Shown piece after piece: positions 19,098 through 52,700 of a stretch of 64,000 nt of DNA; positions within the stretch are counted from its first letter, which is position 1, and the number at the start of each line of letters is the position of its first letter. Position numbers and translations under genes: made by a program. The DNA comes from Parcubacteria bacterium DG_74_1. Its GTDB lineage: Bacteria; Patescibacteriota; Minisyncoccia; Minisyncoccales; DG-74-1. The stretch spans positions 9,169 through 73,168 of the forward strand of contig LJNE01000006.1 of NCBI GenBank assembly GCA_001303125.1, given 5' to 3'. The notes beneath the pieces are model-generated. The model worked only from the letters and a program-made list of their open reading frames with translations, was not told the DNA's origin and searched no databases.

Positions 19098-22000
19098 TTA
19101 ATTTTTTTTAATTGCTAACCATAGTTTTTGCTGGTCGACCATAATTTCTTTTTCAGCAGCAAAAACTTCTTTTTCTTTTTCTTTTCGGGCCAGATTTTTT
19201 ATCTTACCCTCTTTTAGAATAAGGTTCTTGTTCTTTTCCAGAATTTTGTTTAATCCTCCTGAACCAAAATAGTTTATTGAAACTTTATCTTCTGGTTTAA
19301 AGCGGGCAATTTTTCTCATTTCTTGGATTTGCCGAATAATTTCTCTAATGAACCCTTCTTCTCTCAATCCTGGAGTAATTCTGGTATCAAGCTCTACTTC
19401 TCCTTTAATTTTAGGATCAAAGACTATTTCTTTGACATTGACTTCTTCCTTGATTAGGCTTAATAACTCTGCTTTATTTCTCAATTCATAATTCTTAATT
19501 CTTAATTCATTTAAGGGCTGTCTAACTTTAATTTTTGCCCTAGCTCTCTCGGCTAGACTTTTAGTTACCATCTCTCTGGCTTTCTCCATTTTCTTTTCTA
19601 ATGCTCTACCAATCAATTTTTTACTCGCTTTCGGCCAATTCTCTAAATGAACAGAGTCTTGAATTTTTAATTTTGTCTGCCCTTTAGCGATTTTATCCTG
19701 TTTCGGCAGATTCTTAATTTTTTGATATATTTCTTCGGACAGAAAAGGAATAAATGGAGCGGTCAGCTTGCTTAAGGTCAAAAGTACATATTCTAAAGTA
19801 TCAGCGGCTTCGTCAAAGCGCTTACGCGATCTCCTAATATACCACAGAGAGAAATCATTAATAATAAAATCTTCAATTATTCTAGCGGCCCCAGTTATGT
19901 CGTATTTATCTAGTTTTTGAGTTGCCTCCTGGATAACTCTGTTTAATCTTGATATGACCCATCGGTCCAGTAAAGAAATGGCTTTGTACTGACCCATTTC
20001 TATATCAGAATTTGATTTAAGGTTAAATTTACTTGTCTTAATATCTGTAGCGTAAGTTCTGTAAAAGGTAAAACAATTCCAAAGAGTCAAAATGAATCTC
20101 TTAAGCGCCTGGTCAACATCTTTTTCCGAGAAAAGCTTAGAGTCGTCGGGCTGATTAATAGTGTAAAAATACCAGCGAGTGGCGTCGGCTCCGTATTTTT
20201 CAACAAGATACCAGGGATCAGTCACGTTCCCTTTCGATTTTGACATTTTTTCTCCCTTTTCATCTAAAACATGACCTACCGAAAGAACATTTTTATAGGA
20301 CGGACCCTTTCCAAGTAAAGAGGAGATAGCCAGTAAGGTATAGAACCATCCCCGAGTTTGATCAATTGCCTCTGAAATATATTCGGCCGGGAATTGAATT
20401 TTCTTATTAATCAAAGCTTTGTTCTCAAAGGGGTAGTGATACTGAGCGAAAGGCATGGCTCCGGAATCAAACCAACAGTCAATAACTTCAGGGACTCTTT
20501 CCATTGGGGCGTTACACTTTTGACAACAAAATTTTACTTCATCAATGTAAGGCCGGTGGAAATCTAATTCCATTTTTTCATTATAAGGCAGATCTTTGAA
20601 TTCAAATCTCCTGAGCTCTCCTGTTTTTATTTCTTTTTTCTTGATGATAATTCTTGTAAATCGTTTTAAATCATAGCTATAGTTCGCCTTTTCAAGTAAG
20701 GTTAGGGGTCGTTGATGGCCAATAATTAAAATGTTTTTCCCTTGATGTTTTCTATCAACTTGTTTTAAAAATTCGTACATTCTCTTCTCTATATCAGTAA
20801 AATTTTCTCCTTTCGGAGGATTGACCCGGAAACGCTTTGAATAATATTCCAAGGGAGAGAGTTCTTTTTCTTTGTCCCAAAACCTGCCAATTTCTTTCAC
20901 CGGCCTTCCGTTAAAAATACCAATATTTACTTCCCTAAGTTTTTTACTAAATTTGGGCCTTATTCCCAATTCTTTTCCGGCAATTTCAGCGGTTTGTTTT
21001 GTCCTTAAAAGATCTGACGAAAAGATCAGGTTAATTTTCTCCTTTTTTAATTTTTTGGTAGCTACTTTAACTTGTTCTTTTCCTTCTTTAGTTAAAGGAC
21101 AGGGTATTTTTTCTGGCCAACAAGCGGCAACATCTTTTAAATTTCTCAGGGATGTTCCATGTCTTAAAAGGAAATATTTGTTTTTGCTAAATTTTTGCGA
21201 CACTAAATCTTTCTTCGATCCGATTATTTCAAAACAACCACATTTTTTACATTGCCAAATGGGCAAAGGCGTCCCCCAGTATCTTTCTCTAGTTAAGGCC
21301 CAATCTTTTACTTCTTTCAGCCATTCGCCGAATCTTCCTTTTTTTAAATGGGCTGGAAGCCAGTTAGTTTTTTGATTATTTTTAATTAAATCTTTTTTGA
21401 TTTGAGTCATCCTAATAAACCAGGATTCTTTAGCGTAATAAAAAAGGGGCGAATGGCATCGCCAACAAAAAGGATAATCGTGTTCATATAATTCTCTTTT
21501 GAAAAGGATATTTCTATTTTTTAAATCCTCAATTATTAAGGGGTCAGCCTCTTTAATGAACATTCTCGCCCATTTCTTAACTCCCAACTTAAACCTCCCT
21601 TCTTCATCAACCGTTAAGAGTGTCGGCAAGTTATTCTTCTTGCCTGTTATCATGTCTTCTTCGCCAAAGGCCGGAGCTATATGAACCAACCCAGTTCCCT
21701 CTTCCAGAGAAACAAAGTCAGCCAGAATCACCCTGTAAGCCCCCTTAATAACCTCTTCACTGAAGGGATAGAGCGGTTGGTACCTTAAATCAACTAAATC
21801 TTTTCCCCTAAACTCCTTGACGACTTCTCCTTTCGCCCTGCAGGCCTTTATTCTTTCTTTGGCTAAAATTAAGTATTCTTTGTCAATTTTTACTTTAACG
21901 TAAGTAATTTCTGGGTTTACAGCTACCGCAACATTACCCGGCAACGTCCAGGGAGTAGTTGTCCAGACTAACAGAGAGGCGTTTTTGAATTCTGGATTTA

Positions 22001-22619
22001 AAACTGGAAACTTGATATAAATTGCTGGCTCTCTTATTTTTTCATAACCCAAAGCTACCTCATGACTTGATAGGCTTGTGCCACAACGAGCGCAGTAAGG
22101 GATCACCTTATAGTCTTTATATAAAAGTCCTTTTTGCCAAATTTGTTTAATAATCCACCAAACCGTTTCGATATAGTTCGGCATATAGGTAATATAAGGA
22201 TTTTCTGTGTCTAGCCAGAAGGCGATTCTTTCGGTTAAATTCTCCCAGTCTTTCTTATAATTCCAGACGGATTTCCGACATTTTTTGTTAAACTTAGCAA
22301 TTCCGTATTTTTCTATTTCTTTTTTTGATTTCAGCCCTAATTTTTTCTCAATTTCTAATTCTACCGGTAAACCGTGAGTATCCCAACCGGCCTTTCTCAA
22401 GACTTTAAAACCATGCATGGTTTTATATCGACAGATAATATCTTTAAAAACTCTAGTTAAAACATGATGGAGGCCGGGTTTGGCATTGGCTGTTGGCGGC
22501 CCTTCATAAAATACGAAATTCGGCGTCCTCTTGCGCTTCTGAATAGATTTTTCAAAAATTCTATTTCGCTGCCAAAATGTCAATATTTTCTTCTCAGTCT
22601 TGGGAAAATTTATTTCCAT
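19098..22619 (-). CDS. ileS: Isoleucyl-tRNA synthetase (type 2) carrying an internal histidine-phosphatase domain
   Basis: 1173 aa with HHVLTR-type HIGH, KMSKSKGN and a CP1 editing domain. About 200 extra residues (aa about 481-680) lie between the CKKCG zinc knuckle and DFHRPYID. They carry RHG, SSDLLRTKQTAE and IIGHQ motifs. Confidence 0.95.
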   Translation of the reverse strand: MEINFPKTEKKILTFWQRNRIFEKSIQKRKRTPNFVFYEGPPTANAKPGLHHVLTRVFKDIICRYKTMHGFKVLRKAGWDTHGLPVELEIEKKLGLKSKKEIEKYGIAKFNKKCRKSVWNYKKDWENLTERIAFWLDTENPYITYMPNYIETVWWIIKQIWQKGLLYKDYKVIPYCARCGTSLSSHEVALGYEKIREPAIYIKFPVLNPEFKNASLLVWTTTPWTLPGNVAVAVNPEITYVKVKIDKEYLILAKERIKACRAKGEVVKEFRGKDLVDLRYQPLYPFSEEVIKGAYRVILADFVSLEEGTGLVHIAPAFGEEDMITGKKNNLPTLLTVDEEGRFKLGVKKWARMFIKEADPLIIEDLKNRNILFKRELYEHDYPFCWRCHSPLFYYAKESWFIRMTQIKKDLIKNNQKTNWLPAHLKKGRFGEWLKEVKDWALTRERYWGTPLPIWQCKKCGCFEIIGSKKDLVSQKFSKNKYFLLRHGTSLRNLKDVAACWPEKIPCPLTKEGKEQVKVATKKLKKEKINLIFSSDLLRTKQTAEIAGKELGIRPKFSKKLREVNIGIFNGRPVKEIGRFWDKEKELSPLEYYSKRFRVNPPKGENFTDIEKRMYEFLKQVDRKHQGKNILIIGHQRPLTLLEKANYSYDLKRFTRIIIKKKEIKTGELRRFEFKDLPYNEKMELDFHRPYIDEVKFCCQKCNAPMERVPEVIDCWFDSGAMPFAQYHYPFENKALINKKIQFPAEYISEAIDQTRGWFYTLLAISSLLGKGPSYKNVLSVGHVLDEKGEKMSKSKGNVTDPWYLVEKYGADATRWYFYTINQPDDSKLFSEKDVDQALKRFILTLWNCFTFYRTYATDIKTSKFNLKSNSDIEMGQYKAISLLDRWVISRLNRVIQEATQKLDKYDITGAARIIEDFIINDFSLWYIRRSRKRFDEAADTLEYVLLTLSKLTAPFIPFLSEEIYQKIKNLPKQDKIAKGQTKLKIQDSVHLENWPKASKKLIGRALEKKMEKAREMVTKSLAERARAKIKVRQPLNELRIKNYELRNKAELLSLIKEEVNVKEIVFDPKIKGEVELDTRITPGLREEGFIREIIRQIQEMRKIARFKPEDKVSINYFGSGGLNKILEKNKNLILKEGKIKNLARKEKEKEVFAAEKEIMVDQQKLWLAIKKN

Positions 22620-33455: not shown

Positions 33456-34223
33456 CTATATTTCGCGAAATCTGTTTCTAAGAAAGGCTACAATTTCAGA
33501 GCCAACCTCTGGAGCGTCCCAAAAATAATCATGCCCCGGAGCTTGGATAGCTTGAGAAAATGAAAGATCTTGTCTTTTTATTTTTGCTGAAAGCCATTTG
33601 CGGGGTGAGTTTAACAAAGAGAAAAGCAAAATTTTAATTTTCCCTTTAGCTAAACTGTCTTTCCCGGCATTGTTTAATTGAAGAATATTTTCTGGCTCAG
33701 AAATGTTGGCCCAAAAAGGTGTTCCCGCGGTAATAACTATAACTGAACCTCTAGCTTCTTCGGAAATTTTCTCATAGGTTTCATTGGCAAAAGCTCCGCC
33801 AGCAGACAACCCTGTCACGATAACTTTTTTATCTGGCATTTTTTCAACCAAAGACTCAATTTCTCTCGCCAGAAGATTCGAAGAAGACTCAAAAGAATTT
33901 AAAAAATCTTTGGCCCCAGCTATTCTGCCAAAAAAATCATCTTTGGTTCTGGCATAAGGAATGACTAAAGAATTATAGCCCCAATCGTTAAGTGTTTTTT
34001 GAATTCCTTCAATAATCGGTGCGAAATCTTTAGCTTCTTCTAGAGAGGTATTTCCCCAACCACCGGAATTAAAAATAATAATGACGTCGGCCTGCGGGAC
34101 CGGGTTTAAAAACTCCTCAAGTTGAATATGTTCTGGAAAACCCGTCGGACTGAAAAGAAAAAGTAGGCCATTTAAAGCAACCAAAGAGATGGTAAGGTAT
34201 TTTATTTTTTTCATCTTCAACAA
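33456..34223 (-). CDS. Secreted alpha/beta-hydrolase-like protein
   Basis: 255 aa with an N-terminal signal/anchor and the nucleophile elbow VTGLSAGG. Confidence 0.55.
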   Translation of the reverse strand: MLKMKKIKYLTISLVALNGLLFLFSPTGFPEHIQLEEFLNPVPQADVIIIFNSGGWGNTSLEEAKDFAPIIEGIQKTLNDWGYNSLVIPYARTKDDFFGRIAGAKDFLNSFESSSNLLAREIESLVEKMPDKKVIVTGLSAGGAFANETYEKISEEARGSVIVITAGTPFWANISEPENILQLNNAGKDSLAKGKIKILLFSLLNSPRKWLSAKIKRQDLSFSQAIQAPGHDYFWDAPEVGSEIVAFLRNRFREI

Positions 34224-35730: not shown

Positions 35731-36756
35731 ATGATTGAAATTGACGGTTCATTTGGTTCCGGTGGTGGCCAGATTCTGCGTACGGCTTGTGCCCTGGCTG
35801 CGATAACTAAAAAGCCCTGCCACATATTTAATATAAGAGTTAAGCGACCAAAGCCTGGCTTGATGCCGCAACACCTTTTTGGTCTTCAGGCTCTAGCTCA
35901 GATTTGTAAAGCTAGACTAGAGGGTGACGAGCTTGAATCAAAAGAAATCAAATTTTATCCCGGAGAAATTTACAAAGACCGAATTACCATCAATATCCCA
36001 ACGGCAGGGAGCATTACTTTAATTTTGCAAGCATTAATCCCGCCAGCCCTATTTGTGCCAAGCATTACAAAAATTTCTTTTAATGGCGGGGCGACCGACA
36101 CCTTTTTCTCGCCGACGATCGATTATTTCAGATATGTTTTTTTGAAAATTATAGAAATAATGGGGGCGAAAGTTAAAATTAACGTTTCAAGAAGGGGTTA
36201 CTATCCAGAAGGTGAAGCAAAAATGGAGGCCGAAGTTTTTCCATCAGAATTAAAGAACCTTAATTTATTAAAAAGAGGGGCATTCAAAAAAATTACTGCA
36301 ATCTCCGGAGCCTCAACTTCTCTAAGAAATAAAAAGGTAGCTGAGCGTCAGTTAGCTGGAGTAAGAGAAGTTTTGGGTAAATTTAAATTACCAACTGAGG
36401 AAAAAATTGAATATTTTGATGTTTGTTGCCCGGGAAGCCAAATTTGTTTGATCGCCGAGTTTGAAAATACAACAATTGGCACCGATAATCTTGGAAGGCT
36501 TAATAAAAGAGCTGAAGATATTGGAAAAGAAGCGGCTTTAGAGCTCCTGAAAGAACAAAAATCTGGAACTTGTTTAGACAAATATTTGGCGGACCAAATT
36601 CTTCCTTATCTGGCCCTCTTGCCCGGGAAAAGCCAGGTCGCTTGTTCAGAAATTACAAAACATTCCCGAACTAACATTTGGGTAATTGAAAAATTCCTAG
36701 ATGGGGAATTCGAAATAGAAAATAGTTTAATCTCTTGGAGTCCTAAAAAAATTTAA
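35731..36756 (+). CDS. rtcA: RNA 3'-terminal phosphate cyclase
   Basis: 341 aa. IEIDGSFGSGGGQILRTACALAAITKKPCHIFNIR..RPKPGLMPQH..GGATD matches the RtcA family pattern. Confidence 0.9.
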   Translation: MIEIDGSFGSGGGQILRTACALAAITKKPCHIFNIRVKRPKPGLMPQHLFGLQALAQICKARLEGDELESKEIKFYPGEIYKDRITINIPTAGSITLILQALIPPALFVPSITKISFNGGATDTFFSPTIDYFRYVFLKIIEIMGAKVKINVSRRGYYPEGEAKMEAEVFPSELKNLNLLKRGAFKKITAISGASTSLRNKKVAERQLAGVREVLGKFKLPTEEKIEYFDVCCPGSQICLIAEFENTTIGTDNLGRLNKRAEDIGKEAALELLKEQKSGTCLDKYLADQILPYLALLPGKSQVACSEITKHSRTNIWVIEKFLDGEFEIENSLISWSPKKI

Positions 36757-37729
36757 GCATCAAAGAAGCGACAGAGAAATAGATTACCAAGGTTAAAACA
36801 TCTCTAACAATCGTAGCAAAGGGTCCAGAGCCAATGGCTGGGTCTTTTTTTAGACCTTGCAACAACCAAGGAACTAGAACAGCAATGAGACAAGCGCAAA
36901 TTACGGTCAAGAAAAGAGAGACGCCCAAAATAATTCCTATGTTCAAAAGCCCAAACCATAAAAAAGAAATCAAAGCAAGAAAGGCCCCTAATATCAAAGC
37001 GATGACAAGGCTAATTTTTATTTCTTTTAAAAAATATTTTCTTGCATCTAGTCGTGAATCTAGGGCCAGATTCCTGATAAATAAGGTTTGGGCTTGGACG
37101 CCAACTGCGTCAGCCATATAGACAATTAAGGGAATGAAGGCGGCTAGAACAAAATTAACCTTTAGGGGGCCCTCGAAAAAGGTGACTATTTTAGCGGCAA
37201 AAAGGCCTCCAAGAAGACCGAAAATCAACCAAGGGAGTCGAATCTTAGCCAGAACAGAGACCGGGAATTGTAAGGTTTTATTTAAAATGACATCACGTTT
37301 AGAAATTCCGGCAAAACGCAGAATATCTTCAACGTTTTCTGAATGTAGAATCCCCAGAATGACGTCTGAGGGGACAACGCCCAGAAAAATATCCTCTTTA
37401 TCAACTACCGGAACTGACTTAAGGTTATACTTTAAAGCTAAAATTGCTACTCTTTCCTGGTCGGTATGAGGACGAGCTCTTATAACGTCTTTTACCATCA
37501 GGTCTTTGACCTTACTTTCTTCTGGTTTCTGAAAAACATCTTTTAAAGAGAGAACGCCTGCTAGTTTCCCTTTTCGATCGATAATATAAACATAATTCAG
37601 GGTTTCAAAGTCATTGGCTTTTTCAAAAAGTCTTTTACGGATATCTGAAACTCTTTCTTCCGGTACGGCCTTAGGGACATCATCTATCATTCTTCTGCCG
37701 GCTGATTCTGGTGGATACCTATTAGACAT
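36743..37729 (-). CDS. mgtE: Magnesium transporter MgtE (CBS pair + TM domain, no N-domain)
   Basis: 328 aa. After the CBS region come FIPLIVYMADAVGVQAQTLFIRNLA and DPAIGSGPFATIVRDVLTLVIYF, the MgtE pore motifs. Confidence 0.85.
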   Translation of the reverse strand: MSNRYPPESAGRRMIDDVPKAVPEERVSDIRKRLFEKANDFETLNYVYIIDRKGKLAGVLSLKDVFQKPEESKVKDLMVKDVIRARPHTDQERVAILALKYNLKSVPVVDKEDIFLGVVPSDVILGILHSENVEDILRFAGISKRDVILNKTLQFPVSVLAKIRLPWLIFGLLGGLFAAKIVTFFEGPLKVNFVLAAFIPLIVYMADAVGVQAQTLFIRNLALDSRLDARKYFLKEIKISLVIALILGAFLALISFLWFGLLNIGIILGVSLFLTVICACLIAVLVPWLLQGLKKDPAIGSGPFATIVRDVLTLVIYFSVASLMLKFF

Positions 37730-37770
37730 TGTCTTATTTTAGTAAAATTAAAGGGTTAATGCCGCTACCA

Positions 37771-38736
37771 TTAGTCGTATTTTAAGTTAGAATATTTTCC
37801 GCAGCGGTCGTTCCAGCGGGCAACGACCTCTCCATCTATCCTGGCTTCAATTACTTCACAATTATTAGGGCAGCTTTTACATTGGAAAGAGGTACATTTT
37901 ATATTCTTATCTGAAATTTCAAAGCCTAAGAACTTAGTTTTTTGAGGATGATTTTCTTTAACAAGGAGCGCTACTCCAAAAGCTCCGATGACTGTGTTAT
38001 AAGGAGGAACAATAATTTTCTCTCCTAGGGCCTCTTTAAAGGCCCTTCTCATTCCTAAGTTCTCCGAAACCCCTCCCTGAAAGACAATGGGCGGCTTAAT
38101 ATTTTTTCCTTTAGCCACATTATTTAGAAAATTTCTTGCTAGCCCCTGGCAGAGACCAGCCACAATATCTTCAGTAGAATAACCAATTTGTTGTTTATGA
38201 ATCATGTCTGATTCAGCGAACACGGTACATCTTGATCCTATATTAGTTGGGTTGTCTGATCTCAAGGCTATTTCCCCAAATCTCTCAATTGGTAATTTTA
38301 AGCGAGAGGCCTGAGCATCAAGAAAAGAACCAGTACCAGCAGCACAAATAAGGTTCATAGCGAAATCAACCGCCACCCCATTTTCTAAAATAATAATCTT
38401 GGAATCCTGGCCACCGATTTCAATGACTGTTCTAACCTCGGGCACAAAAAAGGAAGCACCCTTGGCATGAGCCGTGATTTCATTTTTAACCAAATCTGCT
38501 CCAGTGATTACTCCGGCTAACTGGCGAGCCGAACCTGTAGTTCCTACGCCAGATACTTCAATGGCTGGATTATATTTTGAGATATAATTCTTTAACTCTT
38601 TCAGTCCCTTCTGAATAACCTCAATCGGATCTCCTTCTGTTCTCAAATAGAGCGAGCTCAAAATTTGGTTTTTCTCATCAATCAAAACCAGATTAGTAGA
38701 GATAGAGCCAACATCTATACCTAAATAAGTTTTCAT
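37771..38736 (-). CDS. BcrAD/BadFG/HgdC-type ATPase (radical-enzyme activase) with Cys-rich C-terminal tail
   Basis: 321 aa with the ASKHA-fold start LGIDVGSISTN and the cluster-helix Cys (ICAAGTGSF) plus a second Cys (GSRCTVFAESD). The extra tail is CTSFQCKSCPNNCEV..RCGKY. Confidence 0.8.
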   Translation of the reverse strand: MKTYLGIDVGSISTNLVLIDEKNQILSSLYLRTEGDPIEVIQKGLKELKNYISKYNPAIEVSGVGTTGSARQLAGVITGADLVKNEITAHAKGASFFVPEVRTVIEIGGQDSKIIILENGVAVDFAMNLICAAGTGSFLDAQASRLKLPIERFGEIALRSDNPTNIGSRCTVFAESDMIHKQQIGYSTEDIVAGLCQGLARNFLNNVAKGKNIKPPIVFQGGVSENLGMRRAFKEALGEKIIVPPYNTVIGAFGVALLVKENHPQKTKFLGFEISDKNIKCTSFQCKSCPNNCEVIEARIDGEVVARWNDRCGKYSNLKYD

Positions 38737-38741
38737 AATTA

Positions 38742-39833
38742 TTATTGTTTGCTATTATAATGATTTCTGACTACGTCTATAAAGGCCTCCAACCGAGTAT
38801 TGATTCCTGCCTCAGCTACTTGCTCATCTAAAGACAAAGACAAAAAGGGGATACCTGATTCCAAATGAATCTTTTCTAAAATTGGCCTGACCGTGACCTC
38901 CGGCATACAGCCGAAAGGTAATAAGTGGATTATACCGTCAAAGTCTTCTTTCACATAATGTAACATTTCATAAATAGCATCTCTTCCATGGCCGCCAACT
39001 GTGGAACGTAAATAGGGATTTATCTTTCTCTGAATTGTCCAGTCCTTCCAAGGAAAGACTAATTTTTTTAAATGATAAGTAATATCCATTTCCCGGTGGA
39101 CCTCAATCCCCTCTTTTCCCAGTTTACTTTCTAAATCAAAGTTAATACTTGGGTCGCAAACGGTATAAATTTCTCCCACTAAAGCTACTCTGGGAATTTT
39201 TTTATCTTTTTCAGTTTCAATTTCAGAAAAACTTTTCAAAATTTCTTTCCTCAGCCTTGGAAAATCTTTCTCCTTATTTAACTTCTCAAGTTCAGTAAGG
39301 CTCTCGGTCAACACCTGGTCAGTGGTTCCTTTTTTAATTTCTCTGGGACGATAGAATTGGGCTTTTTTCTCTATTTTTTCAATTAAACGCAGTTTTTTGA
39401 AAAAGAAACGAGCAGCTCTTATTATTTGCCAGGAAGAAGCACCAGAAATTTTTTTAATTGTTCGATAAATATCTCTGGGGGTAGCCCGGAAATCTAAAAA
39501 ATTAACTTGATGCCCGTTCTCTTCTAAAACCTTTTTCTGGATTGCTCCGTAATATCTCTGCCGGCAAGAGCCGCCAATATTTTGAACCATAAAAACAGTG
39601 TTGGCTCCCTTCCTTAAGCCGGGGAGAACATTGCCTAAGGTCGTTTTCAATGGAAAGCAATACATTTCTGGAGAAATCTTCGCCCCCTCGGCAATGGTGG
39701 TTGGATTGGTTGGTTCTGGAGGAATAACCTCTAAGCCAAGCTGATCAAAAATAGTCTTAAAAGCAATAGTATAATTTCCCCATCTGGCAAAAGTAATTAT
39801 TGTTTTTTTCATATTTTTAGCGCAGGGTATCAA
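38742..39833 (-). CDS. Acyl-CoA dehydratase activase-related protein (DUF2229-like), subunit 2
   Basis: 363 aa. ISPEMYCFPLKTTLGN, GGSCRQRYYG and C-terminal HLLPFGCMPE..IPFLSLSLDEQVAEAGINTRLEAFID. The C-terminal motif is shared with the neighbouring subunit. Confidence 0.6.
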   Translation of the reverse strand: MIPCAKNMKKTIITFARWGNYTIAFKTIFDQLGLEVIPPEPTNPTTIAEGAKISPEMYCFPLKTTLGNVLPGLRKGANTVFMVQNIGGSCRQRYYGAIQKKVLEENGHQVNFLDFRATPRDIYRTIKKISGASSWQIIRAARFFFKKLRLIEKIEKKAQFYRPREIKKGTTDQVLTESLTELEKLNKEKDFPRLRKEILKSFSEIETEKDKKIPRVALVGEIYTVCDPSINFDLESKLGKEGIEVHREMDITYHLKKLVFPWKDWTIQRKINPYLRSTVGGHGRDAIYEMLHYVKEDFDGIIHLLPFGCMPEVTVRPILEKIHLESGIPFLSLSLDEQVAEAGINTRLEAFIDVVRNHYNSKQ

Positions 39834-40722
39834 TAAAGGCTTCTAAGCGAGTTTGTAGACCGGCCTCTCCAGTTTGTTCATCAATTAATAAATATAAAAA
39901 GGGAATGCTATTTTGCTTAAATTTTTTTTCCACAAATTCTTTTAATACCGCGTCGCAGCCGCATTGGAAAGAGGAAATTTCAATCGCTCCAGTAATATTA
40001 TAGTCCAAGATGGCGTCGATTTTCTCCATCCACTCTTTTCCAAACTCCCAATGGAACTTTGGGTAATCTTTATCTTGGACTTTAGATCTTTGATTTATGG
40101 TTTCGTTTACTGGTGTCTCCTCAATAAAGATAGTTTGGGCTCCCAATTTTTCTAATTTTTCCTTTACTCTCAAATTCACATAATCATCGTAAAAATTATA
40201 AGGGTGGGAGACCAGCGTTATCTTCGTTGTTTTTTCTTCTATTTTTCTAAAAAAATTTTCTCTTTTTTCTCTCTCTTCGTCTTTTTCTTTTAAAAAAGCT
40301 TTTTCTCTGGCCCTCTTTACTTCTCTCTTCTCTCTGCCTATTTTTCTCCCTAATTTTGCGAGAGTTCCTTCAAGTGGTTCCTTTTTTTCATTAAATGTTT
40401 CGGTCAAAATTGGCGTTCTAACTAGGATCTTTGACAAATCAGGAAGCGCAAAGAATTTAGGACAATATTCAAGTTTTTCTGCGTTAGTTTTTAATCGTGG
40501 GACAAAAACCCAATCAACTTTCCCATCTAGCCACAGAAGGTGACCAAAAAAAACTTTCGTTGAGAAACAATTCTCCGGGTCAGAAACTCTTACTCCTGCC
40601 TCGACAAGCTCCTTATTGGTTTCTGGTGAAAGTAAAACTCTGAACCCTAGGTCTTCAAAAAAACTTTCCCAAAACTGAGGACGCTTCCAATAAATTAAAG
40701 CTCGCGGTATACCAATAGTCAT
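39817..40722 (-). CDS. Acyl-CoA dehydratase activase-related protein (DUF2229-like), subunit 1
   Basis: IGIPRALIYWKRPQFWESFFEDLGFRVLLSPETNKELVEAG..ENCFSTKVFFGH and the C-terminal SSFQCGCD..IPFLYLLIDEQTGEAGLQTRLEAFID. The start is trimmed to MTIGIPR (ATG at 40722), 1 nt after the stop of the upstream gene. Confidence 0.6.
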   Translation of the reverse strand: MTIGIPRALIYWKRPQFWESFFEDLGFRVLLSPETNKELVEAGVRVSDPENCFSTKVFFGHLLWLDGKVDWVFVPRLKTNAEKLEYCPKFFALPDLSKILVRTPILTETFNEKKEPLEGTLAKLGRKIGREKREVKRAREKAFLKEKDEEREKRENFFRKIEEKTTKITLVSHPYNFYDDYVNLRVKEKLEKLGAQTIFIEETPVNETINQRSKVQDKDYPKFHWEFGKEWMEKIDAILDYNITGAIEISSFQCGCDAVLKEFVEKKFKQNSIPFLYLLIDEQTGEAGLQTRLEAFIDTLR

Positions 40723-40723
40723 G

Positions 40724-41983
40724 TTAAAACAAGCTTTTCTGTTTAGAAAGTTTTTTTTGGTCACCTTCAGAAAAGATTCTGATCTTGCCGTAAACTCCAT
40801 CATAGCCAGGTTCAATATAAACCTTGCCTTCCCTAACTCTAATTATTCCCTCGGCGATTTCGGGTAGCGTAACCAGCTCTAATTCAGAACGAGAAGCCTC
40901 AAGTAAAACATTAAACTCAGAGCCAAATTTGTCAATAAGGCTCTTATATTCTGTTTTGGTCTGTTTCGTCCCCGACATTACTCCTAATGTATCGGCAATA
41001 ATTTCTTCTAAGGGAATCAAGCTCTTGAAAGGAAGAGCATTTTCTGGGTTAAAGCCTTCTGGCTTGTCAGCTAATTCGTCTATCCTATTTAAAACGCCAA
41101 TGGTTAAGGGTTTCCCGCAGTTAGGACAGATATTTCCTGCTTTTTTTGATTCTTGAGGAGAGAAAGAAACTCCGCATAATCTATGGCCATCGTAATGATA
41201 TTTCCCTTCTTGAGGAAAGAATTCAATGGTGCTAATTAGCTTTAGGGTTGCCGGCTCCTGACCCTGCCGCTTTATGGCAGTGATAATTGATTGATAAGTT
41301 AACTCGGAGCCCTCAAAAATATTGGCTTCCCGGCCTAATTTGGTTGGACTATGCGCGTCGCTGTTTGAAATTAAGGTAATCCTTCGACCGTCAGGCATGC
41401 GCCAGAGCATATCCGGGCTAGCCGAAAGTCCTGTTTCGCCAGCATAAATATATTCTGAATAGTTTCCGAAGCATTCTTCAATTGAATCAAACCCTGATTT
41501 TGAACCAAACAAAGAAAACCATGGCGTCATTAAGTGAGCAGGAACTATCAAACAATCTTTCGAGGCATTTAAAACAATTTTGGCTAATTCCTTGGCATCC
41601 AGTCCTAAAATGGGTCGGCCATCCGATTTTAGATTACCAATCCAACTTAAATGAGTATTAATTTTCTCAACTATTTCAAAAGAAGGGGCGAAAATTATAA
41701 TATGAATTTTTCTAACTTTTCCTGTTTTGGAATAAACACAGCTAATTTCAGAGGTCAAAACAAAGCGAGCTTCTGGACCGTTCCTTAATTTAAAAAGCCC
41801 TGGTTCGACAGGCTCTAGTGTTTCTTTCAAGCTTTTAAACCAATCGGGATGAGTAAAATCTCCGCTGCCTAAAATTTTGATTCCCTTTATCTTTGCCCAC
41901 TTACCAAGGTTCTCTAAATCCATATCTTTACTGGTCGCCCTGGAGTACCTTGAATGTAAATGAAAATCGGCAATAAATTGCAT
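40724..41983 (-). CDS. endoQ: Endonuclease Q-like PHP-domain nuclease with zinc finger
   Basis: 419 aa. ADFHLHSRYSRA, GSGDFTHP, SDGRPILGL, PAHLMTPW, NSDAHSP, CPNCGKPLTIGVLNRIDELAD and C-terminal PGYDGVYGKIRIF follow the archaeal EndoQ layout as I recall it. Confidence 0.7.
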   Translation of the reverse strand: MQFIADFHLHSRYSRATSKDMDLENLGKWAKIKGIKILGSGDFTHPDWFKSLKETLEPVEPGLFKLRNGPEARFVLTSEISCVYSKTGKVRKIHIIIFAPSFEIVEKINTHLSWIGNLKSDGRPILGLDAKELAKIVLNASKDCLIVPAHLMTPWFSLFGSKSGFDSIEECFGNYSEYIYAGETGLSASPDMLWRMPDGRRITLISNSDAHSPTKLGREANIFEGSELTYQSIITAIKRQGQEPATLKLISTIEFFPQEGKYHYDGHRLCGVSFSPQESKKAGNICPNCGKPLTIGVLNRIDELADKPEGFNPENALPFKSLIPLEEIIADTLGVMSGTKQTKTEYKSLIDKFGSEFNVLLEASRSELELVTLPEIAEGIIRVREGKVYIEPGYDGVYGKIRIFSEGDQKKLSKQKSLF

Positions 41984-41990
41984 TTTTACG

Positions 41991-42425
41991 TTATTTCTTC
42001 AAAAATTTCTCTTCTAATAGCCCAAAGCCGGTTAAAATAAAAAGAGCTAAAAAAGTAGTGAAACTGGCCAAAAAATAAAGTTTGGCACCAATGGCAATTC
42101 CAATGGCAGCGGCCGCCCATAATCCGGCAGCAGTAGTCAAGCCAATAACTCCTGAGGCTTGACGGAAAATAACTCCGGCGCCAATAAAACCAATACCAAC
42201 AGCAATGGCCATAATTATTCGTGAAGGATCAAAGCTGACGCCGGCTTTTTCAAAAAAGACATCGATATTAAACAATTCAAAAGAAATAATTGTAAAAAGG
42301 CAGGTACCTAAAGTAACTAAACTATAGGTTTGGAGGCCGGCCTCCTTTCTTTTGATTCCTCTTTCTAGGCCAATCAACGCACCAAAAATTGTAGCTAAAA
42401 TTAGCTGAAAGGCAGCTTCTCCCAT
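41991..42425 (-). CDS. mgtC: MgtC/SapB family membrane protein (membrane domain only)
   Basis: 144 aa with 4-5 TM helices. IGLERGIKRKEAGLQTYSLVTLG matches the MgtC N-terminal signature. Confidence 0.75.
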   Translation of the reverse strand: MGEAAFQLILATIFGALIGLERGIKRKEAGLQTYSLVTLGTCLFTIISFELFNIDVFFEKAGVSFDPSRIIMAIAVGIGFIGAGVIFRQASGVIGLTTAAGLWAAAAIGIAIGAKLYFLASFTTFLALFILTGFGLLEEKFLKK

Positions 42426-42807: not shown

Positions 42808-43267
42808 CTACAAAGCTTTAAATCGACCTTTGCTAAATTTCTTTTCTTTTTTAATGAGGGTAATTAATCTCTTAACTAGTCTCTGGAGATCTTTCTCGTA
42901 AATAATCTTTTTCACTCCTCGGTGAGGACCGGTAACAATTTTTTATCGGCAGCTTTTGTCATCATAATGTTTCTTTCTATGTAATCTGCTTTGTATAAAT
43001 CATTATATCAAAAGGAGACGAAGGAAGCCGATAGGTTTTTAGGTGAGCCGATTCTGAGGCAGCTGGTGAAAATCCGATACTAAATCCCCAGGCTTTGGCG
43101 CAGCCTAAAGCTGCGAAATAAGGGACGCCGGTTGTTGCTCCGGTAACCAAATTGCATTTCTGCCGGGCAACTTGTCTACCAATCTCTCTCGTTATCTCTT
43201 TTATTCTGCCGCAGCAATGATTGGCCTGGGCAGCTCCGGAAACAACAATCTCAAACTCATCTGCCAT
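42808..43267 (-). pseudogene. Degraded LOG/TIGR00725-like (SLOG Rossmann) gene
   Basis: The 96-aa ORF (42977-43267) has VSGAA..NLVTGATTGVPYFAALGCAKAWGFSIGFSPA..IMIYT and then stops. A shifted frame downstream (to 42808) reads KIVTGPHRGVKKIIYEKDLQRLVKRLITLIKKE. The central GG-GT-E region is missing and there is no Shine-Dalgarno before the ATG. Confidence 0.4.
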
Positions 43268-50833: not shown

Positions 50834-52276
50834 TTATTCTCCCTTAATTACCGCTAATGGTTTTAATTTTACTACTTTTTTGGACAAGCCAGCGTTATGG
50901 ACTACTCCTACCACGTCGTCAACATTTTTATAGGCCATTGGGGCTTCTTCTGCTATCCCTCGAAGATTCCAACATTTAACAATAATACCTTTGGATTTTA
51001 ACTCTTTTAGCAAATTTTGTCCAGAAACCCTTCTGGTAGCTTCGTGACGAGACATGGTTCTACCCGCGCCATGATTTGTCGAGAAAAATGCGTCTCTCCC
51101 AGTATTTACTCCGACCAGGACATAGGAGGCGGTCCCCATTGAGCCGGGAATCAAAACCGGTTGGCCAACCGCTCGGTATTTCTGAGGAACCTCGGGATGA
51201 CTAGGGGGAAAGGCTCTCGTTGCCCCTTTTCTATGGAGACAAAGTTCTAATGTTTCTCCTTCAATTTCATGTTTCTCGATTTTAGCAATATTATGGGCCA
51301 CATCATAAACTGTAGTTAAGTTTGTAGATTTTTCTCCCAAAACTGACCTCCAGGCCTTCCTGACAAAGTGGGCGATTGTTTGGCGATTGGCCCAAGCATA
51401 ATTGGCTCCGGCAGCCATAGCTGATAGATATTTTTGTCCTTCAGGAGAATTAATCGGGCAGGCAGCTAACTCTCTATCGGGCAATCTTATACCGTATTTA
51501 TCCATCGTCCCCATCATTACCCTTATATAATCAGTAGCAATTTGATGACCTAGGCCCCGAGAACCAGTGTGAATCATGATAACGACCTGTTCTAAAAATA
51601 AACCGAAAATTTCAGCTGTCTTCCCGTCAAAAACTTCGTCTACTTTTTGAATTTCCAAGAAATGATTTCCGGAACCTAAGGTCCCCACCTGGTCTCTGCC
51701 CCTGTTTTTGGCATGATCGGAAACGAGAGAAGCGTCAGCTTGAGGAAGCCTCCCATTCGATTCGCAGCTCTCTAAGTCCTCCTTTTCGCCATAACCCTGT
51801 TCAACTACTCTCTGGGCCCCTCTCTCTAAAATCTTATTAATAGAAGCGGCGTCTAGCTTTATTTGCCTTCCCCGTCCTAAGCCAGAAGGAACTTCTTTTT
51901 GGATTTCTATTGCTAAGCCCTCTAAATAGTTTCTAATTTCTTCTTCTTTATAATCTGATTTTAAAAGCCTCATGCCGCAGTTAATATCATAGCCAACGCC
52001 GCCGGGCGAAATCACCCCACTCTTTATATCCATAGCGGCTACTCCGCCAATTGGGAAGCCGTACCCTTCATGCATATCCGGCATAGCCAAGCTATAATTT
52101 ACTATTCCCGGTAAAGAGGCTACATTAACCAACTGGTCAAGCGATTTATCCCGAAGGGCGCTTTCTAACATTATTTCTGAAACGTAGGCCCTAGCCGCTA
52201 CTCGCATATCTGACCTAAACCCTTTAGGAATCTCCCATAGCGAATCATTAATTTTTATAAAATCAGATTTTTTCAT
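50834..52276 (-). CDS. rtcB: RNA ligase RtcB
   Basis: 480 aa. PDMHEGYGFPIGGV, GYDINCGMR, GSGNHFLE, HTGSRGLGHQ and NHGAGR provide the metal and GMP-His motifs. Confidence 0.96.
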   Translation of the reverse strand: MKKSDFIKINDSLWEIPKGFRSDMRVAARAYVSEIMLESALRDKSLDQLVNVASLPGIVNYSLAMPDMHEGYGFPIGGVAAMDIKSGVISPGGVGYDINCGMRLLKSDYKEEEIRNYLEGLAIEIQKEVPSGLGRGRQIKLDAASINKILERGAQRVVEQGYGEKEDLESCESNGRLPQADASLVSDHAKNRGRDQVGTLGSGNHFLEIQKVDEVFDGKTAEIFGLFLEQVVIMIHTGSRGLGHQIATDYIRVMMGTMDKYGIRLPDRELAACPINSPEGQKYLSAMAAGANYAWANRQTIAHFVRKAWRSVLGEKSTNLTTVYDVAHNIAKIEKHEIEGETLELCLHRKGATRAFPPSHPEVPQKYRAVGQPVLIPGSMGTASYVLVGVNTGRDAFFSTNHGAGRTMSRHEATRRVSGQNLLKELKSKGIIVKCWNLRGIAEEAPMAYKNVDDVVGVVHNAGLSKKVVKLKPLAVIKGE

Positions 52277-52292
52277 ATTGATCTTTTATTTT

Positions 52293-52700
52293 TTAGACAT
52301 CGAAAAGGACTATCGCTTCCCAAGTTTTGTCTTTTTTTTGATGAACATCTAAATTATGATAGGTTACGGCTTTAATATCTTCCCCAAGTCTTTCTACTTT
52401 TCGCCCCGCAAGCCTAGCTTCAAGCTCGGTATCTGTAAATCTTATAAAATCTACATTACTGTATATCTCTTTATTTATTTGATTAAAATATAAAATCTCG
52501 CTTAAAAAATCAACTAACAAAGAAAGAGGGTTAAGAGACTTGATTTTAATTTTTCTTTCTGTCTTTTTATTGTCCTTAATTTCTGGTTTTTGACTCTCGC
52601 TCATTCCTAAAAGCATGTTCTGAAATAATTCTTCTTTTGTTTTCCCAAAAGCTCTAATTTTCAAATCTGCTTTATGTTCTAAAACCTCATATTTCTTCAT
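52293..52700 (-). CDS. Archease (RtcB activator)
   Basis: 135 aa. YEVLEHKADLKIRAFGKTKEELFQN..IKAVTYHNLDV matches the archease N- and C-terminal motifs. Confidence 0.85.
   Translation of the reverse strand: MKKYEVLEHKADLKIRAFGKTKEELFQNMLLGMSESQKPEIKDNKKTERKIKIKSLNPLSLLVDFLSEILYFNQINKEIYSNVDFIRFTDTELEARLAGRKVERLGEDIKAVTYHNLDVHQKKDKTWEAIVLFDV

Follow-up and report, generated by a model that had tools for sequence, protein, structure and literature searches.

What does a three-gene module for an ATP-driven radical enzyme do in Parcubacteria bacterium DG_74_1, and do the genes packed around it share in its work? The question arises from a 64-kb stretch of this organism's DNA. We call the whole stretch the window and searched for homologues of its proteins. 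Six minus-strand genes follow one another in the window. They encode an MgtC-like membrane protein, an EndoQ-like nuclease, two DUF2229 proteins (D1 and D2), an activase (Act) and MgtE (Table 1). An earlier note, made from the DNA letters and a list of open reading frames (ORFs), had read the six as one operon. All six ORFs are present where that note placed them. Profile matches uphold its family calls (MgtC, EndoQ, two DUF2229/HGD-D proteins, a BcrAD/HgdC-type activase and MgtE). We conclude that D1, D2 and Act very probably constitute a three-component reductase of the DUF2229/PlsA-Ger family, driven by an archerase. The module is a split, single-activase version of PlsA/PlsR and Ger. The likeliest substrate is a membrane-lipid ester, but whether the module is a lipid ester reductase is in our judgement an evenly balanced question.

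D1 and D2 have the same architecture. In Pfam searches, D1 matched DUF2229 at 1.5e-42 and the HGD-D C-terminus at 2.1e-5; the corresponding values for D2 were 5.6e-14 and 2.5e-6. Three cysteines are invariant in each protein. These are C52, C87 and C254 across 42 D1 sequences, and C52, C83 and C302 across 62 D2 sequences and in PlsR. An AlphaFold2 model of D1 was of high quality (predicted local distance difference test 93.5, predicted template modelling score 0.90). Its top fold matches in the PDB were the double-cubane protein DCCP, HadB/C, MbdO/N and BzdN/O, with a probability of 1.00 and template modelling (TM) scores of 0.56-0.63. The D2 profile matched the D1 profile (99.9%, E=7e-32) and, in the PDB, HadB beta (5.7e-4). 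The HgdA/B-HadB/C-BcrB/C fold is assigned to D1 from a structure model and to D2 from profile comparison. The data support D1 and D2 as paralogous catalytic subunits of the superfamily of radical enzymes that contains the class I benzoyl-CoA reductases (BCR) and 2-hydroxyacyl-CoA dehydratases (HAD). The relationship to dehydratase and reductase components proposed in the earlier note is thus borne out.

The same note drew attention to a C-terminal motif common to both subunits (IPFL..DE..EAG..TRLEAF). The motif is there, but it is a signature of HGD-D across the superfamily and occurs also in the double-cubane protein 7yyl_C. Hence, we rejected it as a mark of a specific D1/D2 partnership. A double-cubane type was likewise ruled out for D1 and D2, which have three invariant cysteines each as against a seven-Cys motif. 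In HadBC, the three-Cys pattern goes with a [4Fe-4S] cluster that has one Fe free for the substrate carbonyl. By analogy, the three cysteines of D1, and likewise those of D2, would hold a [4Fe-4S] cluster in which one Fe is free.

Act matched PF01869 at 4.6e-52 and TIGR00241 at 3e-63. Among proteins of solved structure it matched MbdQ (1.3e-41), HgdC (7.4e-40) and HadI (1.4e-38). The cysteines of the bridging cluster, C131 and C170, are 100% conserved, including in both activase domains of PlsA (Act1 and Act2). The earlier note was correct that both are kept. It was also correct that the DUF2229 proteins are served by an ATP-driven activase, here of the archerase type.

The C-terminal tail of Act does contain five cysteines, as noted before, but only four are family-wide. 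All 50 Act homologues compared, and PlsA too, have C286, C289, C293 and C312. Conversely, C281 is 98% conserved in the 50 homologues and is Ser in PlsA; from these alignments, it is specific to the split family. The spacing C-x2-C-x3-C-x18-C is identical in the tail of Act and in the linker between Act2 and the first reductase domain (Red1) of PlsA. The tail extends past the region aligned to the solved activases HgdC, HadI and MbdQ (269-276 amino acids (aa)). Because the spacing is that of the PlsA linker, and the solved activators end earlier, the tail links Act to the PlsA type. It is predicted to be an extra Fe-S or Zn site, and this is probable. We propose, from the present data and not from a published criterion, that C-x2-C-x3-C-x18-C after the (second) activase domain is a feature of the family.

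Proteins that fuse two BcrAD_BadFG domains with DUF2229 and HGD-D segments have been identified as PlsA/PlsR, an anaerobic plasmalogen synthase (Jackson et al. 2021, cited from PMC9702350, PMC8788747 and PMC12838417). A 'modified PlsA' is the glycerol ester reductase Ger (PMC13159169). The earlier note stated that such modules are often fused elsewhere into proteins of about 1,400 aa with no known function. The fusion is real, but the function is known, namely that of PlsA/PlsR and Ger. To obtain a reference pair, we scanned the genome collection with the gene-specific part of a published C. perfringens plsA-plsR cloning primer. This identified a locus of Clostridium sp., not of C. perfringens itself, encoding PlsA of 975 aa and PlsR of 420 aa. 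The two genes span exactly 4,199 bp, the plsA-plsR fragment size that PMC12838417 credits to Jackson et al.

Each protein of the module has its own counterpart in this pair. In BLASTP and phmmer comparisons, D1 matched PlsA residues 664-972 (24% identity, 5e-19) and had no significant match to PlsR. Conversely, D2 matched PlsR (25% identity, 1.4e-17) and Red1 of PlsA at just 1e-6. Act matched the Act2 domain and linker of PlsA (residues 317-630; 34%, 2e-52) better than Act1 (28%, 3e-28). A profile of 42 D1 homologues aligned with PlsA Red1 over 295 columns (hhalign 99.9%, E=1.7e-31). Of the 25 positions with 95% or higher conservation among D1 homologues, 20 are kept in Red1, including C52, K56, G60-H61, C87, Y175, D179, C254, D257, D281-E282 and R292. 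The two paralogous reductase modules, each a DUF2229 with an HGD-D C-terminus, thus map one-to-one to Red1 and Red2. Furthermore, PlsR matches are confined to the second halves of natural D1-D2 fusions. Taken together, the one-to-one matches and the behaviour of the fusions indicate that the module is PlsA/PlsR taken apart and reordered. Judged by sequence, its order (Red1, Red2, single activase) is a disassembled and permuted PlsA/PlsR. The domain content (PF01869, PF09989 and PF06050) is that described for Ger and for E. faecalis PlsA.

The earlier note considered a reductive radical enzyme unexpected in so reduced a genome. A word-indexed search with D1 gave 1,049 homologue clusters at 90% identity. 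The best 120 of these are proteins of ~300 aa with 64-100% identity. The organisms named among these 120 are all Parcubacteria or Patescibacteria, except one (Candidatus Humimicrobiaceae). Hence, the enzyme is no oddity there. An exhaustive search gave 2,280 clusters at 50% identity (E<=1e-3), with 326 below 1e-30. Among the best 150 of the 2,280, nearly every protein is either a separate subunit of ~300-400 aa or a D1-D2 fusion of ~700-770 aa. Since no 1,400-aa protein occurs among these best 150, the split form is a large family of its own.

Gene order within the module is conserved. For close relatives, we used 80 loci from metagenomes in which D1 is 63% identical or more. D2 follows D1 in 56 of 57 of these close loci, and Act follows D2 in 45 of 46. 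The order D1-D2-Act is also kept in five of five distant relatives (33-47% identity), including metagenome-assembled genomes (MAGs) of a Dehalococcoidia and a Bacillota, where D1 and D2 are fused. One relative (L009 8001-12972, 46% identity) has a four-gene form of the module, in which two DUF2229-type proteins, the first of 671 aa and the second (DUF2229-like) of 347 aa, stand between D1 and the activase. The subunits of the family thus seem to vary still more.

The orthologues of Act, D2 and EndoQ in some close relatives are ~400 aa longer, and each contains a LAGLIDADG intein (Intein_splicing and LAGLIDADG_3). Examples are L017 4604-6820 (Act), L023 7827-10103 (D2) and L016 66-2564 (EndoQ). 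Further inteins are at loci L024, L025, L026, L036, L042, L051, L056, L066, L074, L076 and L087. The Act intein sits before a bridging-cluster cysteine (NLI|CAAGTG), equivalent to C131 of the window (38344-38346). The D2 intein precedes the third cluster cysteine (LLPFG|CMPEV), equivalent to C302 (38907-38909). In EndoQ, the intein lies just after a metal-ligand His (PAH|C..; PfuEndoQ H139), which is H149 in the window (~41535). The window alleles of Act, D2 and EndoQ are intein-free. Placement of inteins exactly at Act C131 and D2 C302 marks these as critical sites.

A mechanism can be sketched from the known enzymes. Homology, architecture, cluster ligands and gene order are shown by the present analysis, and from these the clusters themselves, the heterodimer, the electron donor and the lipid substrate are inferred. 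By comparison with HgdC and HadI, Act would form a homodimer in which C131 and C170 bridge a [4Fe-4S] cluster. It would be reduced by ferredoxin or flavodoxin. 2-Oxoacid:ferredoxin oxidoreductases are common in Parcubacteria; a ferredoxin-type CxxCxxCxxxC motif is absent from every ORF of the window. ATP hydrolysis by Act would then drive a low-potential electron into a D1/D2 heterodimer, and the C-x2-C-x3-C-x18-C tail may join in electron transfer. An ester carbonyl would bind the free Fe and be converted to a ketyl radical. In this way, a membrane glycerolipid might have its sn-1 acyl ester turned into a vinyl ether or an alkyl ether. According to published accounts, Parcubacteria make neither fatty acids nor lipids and obtain lipids from other cells, so a lipid substrate would come from there. 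The substrates of PlsA/PlsR and Ger are preformed diacyl lipids, and these enzymes work only under anoxia; Ger turns the sn-1 ester into an alkyl ether. Such enzymes fit an anaerobic, lipid-scavenging host. Ger and PlsA are indistinguishable by sequence homology alone, so the module of the window could give either product. We found no description of the three-gene, single-activase, permuted form in the literature searched. It is possible, and we suggest it tentatively, that many Parcubacteria convert scavenged ester lipids to plasmalogens or alkyl ethers by means of this conserved, split enzyme of the PlsA/PlsR-Ger type.

Several observations weigh against a lipid ester as the substrate. The module lacks a tandem activase (BB) fused to the first reductase domain. 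Instead, one 321-aa activase is encoded by a separate gene downstream. The BBD core has been published as conserved in all alkyl-ether producers. D1 and D2 are only 24-25% identical to PlsA/PlsR, for which a single pair was compared. PlsA Red1 is 24-29% identical to representatives of the split family, and these are 30-40% identical to the D1 of the window. Since Red1 is farther from the split family than the members of that family are from D1, the split family is probably a sister clade and not a demonstrated orthologue. Ger, a single fused protein of ~150 kDa as opposed to the split module, was likened to it by description alone. No lipid-synthesis gene adjoins the module. In one aquifer, 72 of 72 intact polar lipids from a small-cell fraction rich in candidate phyla radiation (CPR) bacteria were acylglycerols. 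Finally, the published Ger/PlsA surveys consulted name no Patescibacteria as carriers, but the coverage thresholds used in them would overlook split genes. The original survey, which mentions hits in 'bacteria candidate phyla' and DPANN archaea, set a minimum of 30% for query coverage. Against a ~150-kDa query, this value is out of reach for a ~300-aa subunit.

D1, D2 and Act could instead form a radical enzyme, a reductase or dehydratase from the DUF2229 clade, that is driven by an archerase but has a non-lipid substrate, and likeness to PlsA and Ger would reflect shared chemistry only. Candidate substrates would be thioesters (of CoA or otherwise), soluble metabolites with an oxygen ester, or small molecules like those of double-cubane proteins. 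The remote kinship to PlsA/PlsR and the all-acylglycerol fraction from the CPR-enriched sample speak for such an enzyme. The split family is also a separate large clade, and the neighbourhoods of the five distant relatives share no lipid genes. Conversely, PlsA/PlsR and Ger are the sole DUF2229 proteins with an assigned function in the literature searched, and both the residues of the active-site region and the tail of Act are common to PlsA. The three-Cys pattern excludes enzymes of the double-cubane type. Going by general descriptions, Parcubacteria would have little of the CoA-ester fermentation that needs a HAD/BCR enzyme. We consider a non-lipid substrate possible but somewhat less likely than a lipid ester.

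We next consider the neighbouring genes. EndoQ is a full-length match to PfuEndoQ (5zb8; E=3.6e-59). It matched TIGR00375 at 2.5e-54, with a score of 185 bits that is below the curated cutoff of 326.6. The residues H8, H10, E76, H139, T142, W144, E167, G169, L170, N191, D193 and H195 of PfuEndoQ are kept. Compared with the published structure, metal ligands and lesion-pocket residues are conserved with two exceptions. PfuEndoQ His84 aligns one position off in the window protein. In addition, the Zn site reads H-x2-C...C-x2-C (window 41140-41200, minus strand; residues ~263-286), with His in place of PfuEndoQ Cys249, the first Zn ligand.

MgtC matched PF02308 at 1.4e-34 (residues 8-138) and consists of the membrane domain only. 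Conversely, virulence-type MgtC proteins have an additional C-terminal soluble domain. Scores against the NCBIfam equivalogs for MgtC were far under the cutoffs. MgtE matched TIGR00400 at 2.5e-70 and exceeded the cutoff (237.5 against 232.75 bits), but only over profile positions 128-448. Of the parts of an MgtE channel (N-domain, CBS pair and five-TM MgtE domain), it has the CBS pair and PF01769 but no N-domain. The ends of MgtE and RtcA, an RNA 3'-phosphate cyclase, overlap convergently by 14 nucleotides (nt). RtcA (35731-36756, plus strand), the RNA ligase RtcB (50834-52276, minus strand) and Archease (52293-52700, minus strand) all occur in the window.

Could all six genes be one functional unit, with the radical enzyme working alongside EndoQ and two Mg-related membrane proteins? 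In 66 of 69 close loci, the gene immediately before D1 is EndoQ, with junctions of 1-4 nt or overlapping genes. MgtC is upstream in 29 of 35, and the spacers have no terminator-like site. However, the loci that give this support all have at least 63% D1 identity, and share a whole syntenic block. From its upstream end, this block encodes an ELP3-like radical SAM protein, a methyltransferase, SLOG, a small EF-Tu-domain-2-like protein, (MgtC), EndoQ, D1, D2 and Act; RtcA and GreA are farther downstream of Act in the same block. The flanking genes are about as constant as EndoQ (EF-Tu-domain-2-like 32/35, SLOG 30/35). In the five distant relatives, EndoQ never adjoins the module (0/5). Hence, the adjacency of EndoQ is lineage-wide synteny, and is not evidence of a function shared with the module.

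The other two neighbours are less constant. Neither MgtC nor MgtE is near the module in the five distant relatives. An amino-acid-permease-like gene is often found between MgtC and EndoQ, and MgtE adjoins Act in one of 37 related loci; elsewhere, DUF498 or PGA_cap genes take that place. MgtC is therefore a frequent but variable neighbour and MgtE an incidental one. EndoQ also retains the residues of a DNA-lesion nuclease, aside from the two exceptions above. A functional unit of all six genes is accordingly very improbable. The gene order that the earlier note expected to be conserved is so for D1-D2-Act, from Parcubacteria to Dehalococcoidia and Bacillota, but not for MgtE or, beyond close relatives, for EndoQ. 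Its operon of six genes as a conserved functional unit does not stand: MgtE is almost never there, MgtC is separable and EndoQ is confined to one clade with a syntenic 12-gene block. EndoQ is a clade-conserved neighbour of D1, probably with co-transcription and translational coupling. In sum, EndoQ, MgtC and MgtE are co-directional and probably co-transcribed neighbours that do not look like functional partners.

The packing of the genes is in line with this. The earlier note had started D2 at TTG 39833, giving a 17-nt overlap with D1. The start of D2 is most likely ATG 39812, because homologues are 354-359 aa long; this predicts a 356-aa protein and a 4-nt spacer, and the overlap disappears. 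EndoQ and D1 are separated by 1 nt. The earlier note had stressed the tight packing of the six genes. Such packing is not distinctive: ~93% of the window is coding, the median co-directional junction is 7 nt, and 29 of 53 such junctions are of 10 nt or less. We therefore rejected tight spacing as a signal of special coupling. A promoter and terminator scan of the window gave no excess over shuffled sequences, and did not fix the limits of the operon.

Table 1. Features of the minus-strand gene cluster in the 64-kb window of Parcubacteria bacterium DG_74_1.
Feature	Position in window	Strand	Description
MgtC/SapB-family membrane protein	41991..42425	-	144 aa, PF02308
EndoQ-family PHP nuclease	40724..41983	-	419 aa, match to PfuEndoQ 5zb8
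D1, reductase subunit 1 (PlsA Red1 counterpart)	39817..40722	-	301 aa, DUF2229 + HGD-D C-terminus
D2, reductase subunit 2 (PlsR/Red2 counterpart)	38742..39812	-	356 aa, DUF2229 + HGD-D C-terminus; start most likely ATG 39812
Act, single-domain ATP-dependent electron-transfer activase (archerase)	37771..38736	-	321 aa, PF01869/TIGR00241
Cys-rich C-terminal tail of Act	37801..37896	-	C281-x4-C286-x2-C289-x3-C293-x18-C312
MgtE Mg2+ channel	36743..37729	-	328 aa, TIGR00400, CBS pair + TM domain

An Rfam scan of the window found a tRNA and nothing else. Most of the other larger ORFs were compared with Pfam, which identified housekeeping, RNA-repair and transport genes and no lipid-synthesis genes; two of these ORFs matched no Pfam family. 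The syntenic block continues downstream of the module and, within a few genes, includes a membrane-anchored alpha/beta hydrolase resembling class-3 lipases (33456-34223, minus strand). The lipase-like gene is also in the block of several relatives (L001, L003, L020 and L073); loci of this gene region are L001 13004-14810, L003 15142-16912 and L005 14413-15426. A gene of the lysyl-phosphatidylglycerol-synthase-TM type lies near it in relatives, directly after it in L001 and L002, and was not seen in the window. These two genes are a weak hint of lipid-related functions in the vicinity.

Two other genes of the window are unusual. The SLOG/LDcluster4 gene (42838-43258, minus strand) is split over three frames and lacks ~40 residues; its relatives are 183-186 aa long. 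The window copy is probably a pseudogene or an assembly error, and the reported 96-aa ORF (42977-43267) is its N-terminal half only. At 19098-22619 (minus strand) is a 1,173-aa IleRS-like class I aminoacyl-tRNA synthetase with a His_Phos_1 domain (3.1e-31, residues 483-661). This histidine-phosphatase domain lies between the two halves of the catalytic domain, an unusual insertion.

The module matters whichever substrate it has. If lipid esters are reduced, this would be rare lipid-modifying chemistry under strong selection in bacteria thought to use borrowed membranes; signs of such selection are the 64-89% identity among close relatives and the inteins that target cluster cysteines. Ultrasmall episymbionts could then customise borrowed membranes. 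Parcubacteria would join the candidate sources of the sedimentary ether lipids used as biomarkers, and would be a source of bacterial ether lipids in anoxic sediments that was missed by surveys demanding long coverage of a fused protein. The module would also be a naturally disassembled PlsA or Ger, with a separate activase and two subunits, and so be easier for biochemistry than 150-kDa fusions. If the substrate is something else, the family, whose clusters at 50% identity number more than 2,000, is a large branch of ATP-driven radical enzymes that awaits characterisation.

How does the module compare with known systems? HadBC/HadI, HgdAB/HgdC, BzdNO and MbdONPQ combine a separate activator with a heterodimer of paralogous catalytic subunits, as the module is proposed to do. 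The HAD/BCR enzymes have three-Cys [4Fe-4S] sites and the fold of D1 (TM 0.56-0.63), and their activators match Act at 1e-38 to 1e-41. However, sequence alignment is limited to the C-terminal ~70-90 residues of D1 and ~60-65 of D2. The N-terminal part of D1 and D2 is DUF2229, and not a full HGD-D domain as in HAD/BCR. Unlike Act, the HAD/BCR activators have no Cys-rich tail, and the substrates of these enzymes are CoA thioesters. DCCP/DCCP-R (7yyl, 6eno), an ATP-dependent reductase of the same superfamily as D1 and D2, gave the best profile match in the PDB (3.8e-7) and came first by fold E-value (1.8e-8, level with HadB). Its seven-Cys motif (six ligands) holds an [8Fe-9S] cluster, whereas D1 and D2 have three invariant cysteines each.

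PlsA/PlsR (C. perfringens CPE1194/1195; a single ORF in Enterococcus faecalis) has the same three Pfam domains as the module. As in D1, D2 and Act, there are three conserved cysteines per reductase module and both bridging cysteines of the activase. The second activase domain of PlsA, including C-x2-C-x3-C-x18-C, is the counterpart of Act. Conversely, the module has three separate genes where PlsA/PlsR has one or two, and one activase domain, presumably a homodimer, where PlsA has a tandem pair. The order is Red1-Red2-Act as opposed to Act1-Act2-Red1-Red2, and identity is only 24-34%. Act has extra conserved cysteines compared with PlsA, at C281 in the tail and C196 in the ATPase. The host is a lipid-auxotrophic CPR bacterium, unlike those of PlsA/PlsR. 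Ger (Thermotoga maritima Tmari_0479; Desulfatibacillum alkenivorans) belongs to the PlsA family and has the architecture BBDHDDH.

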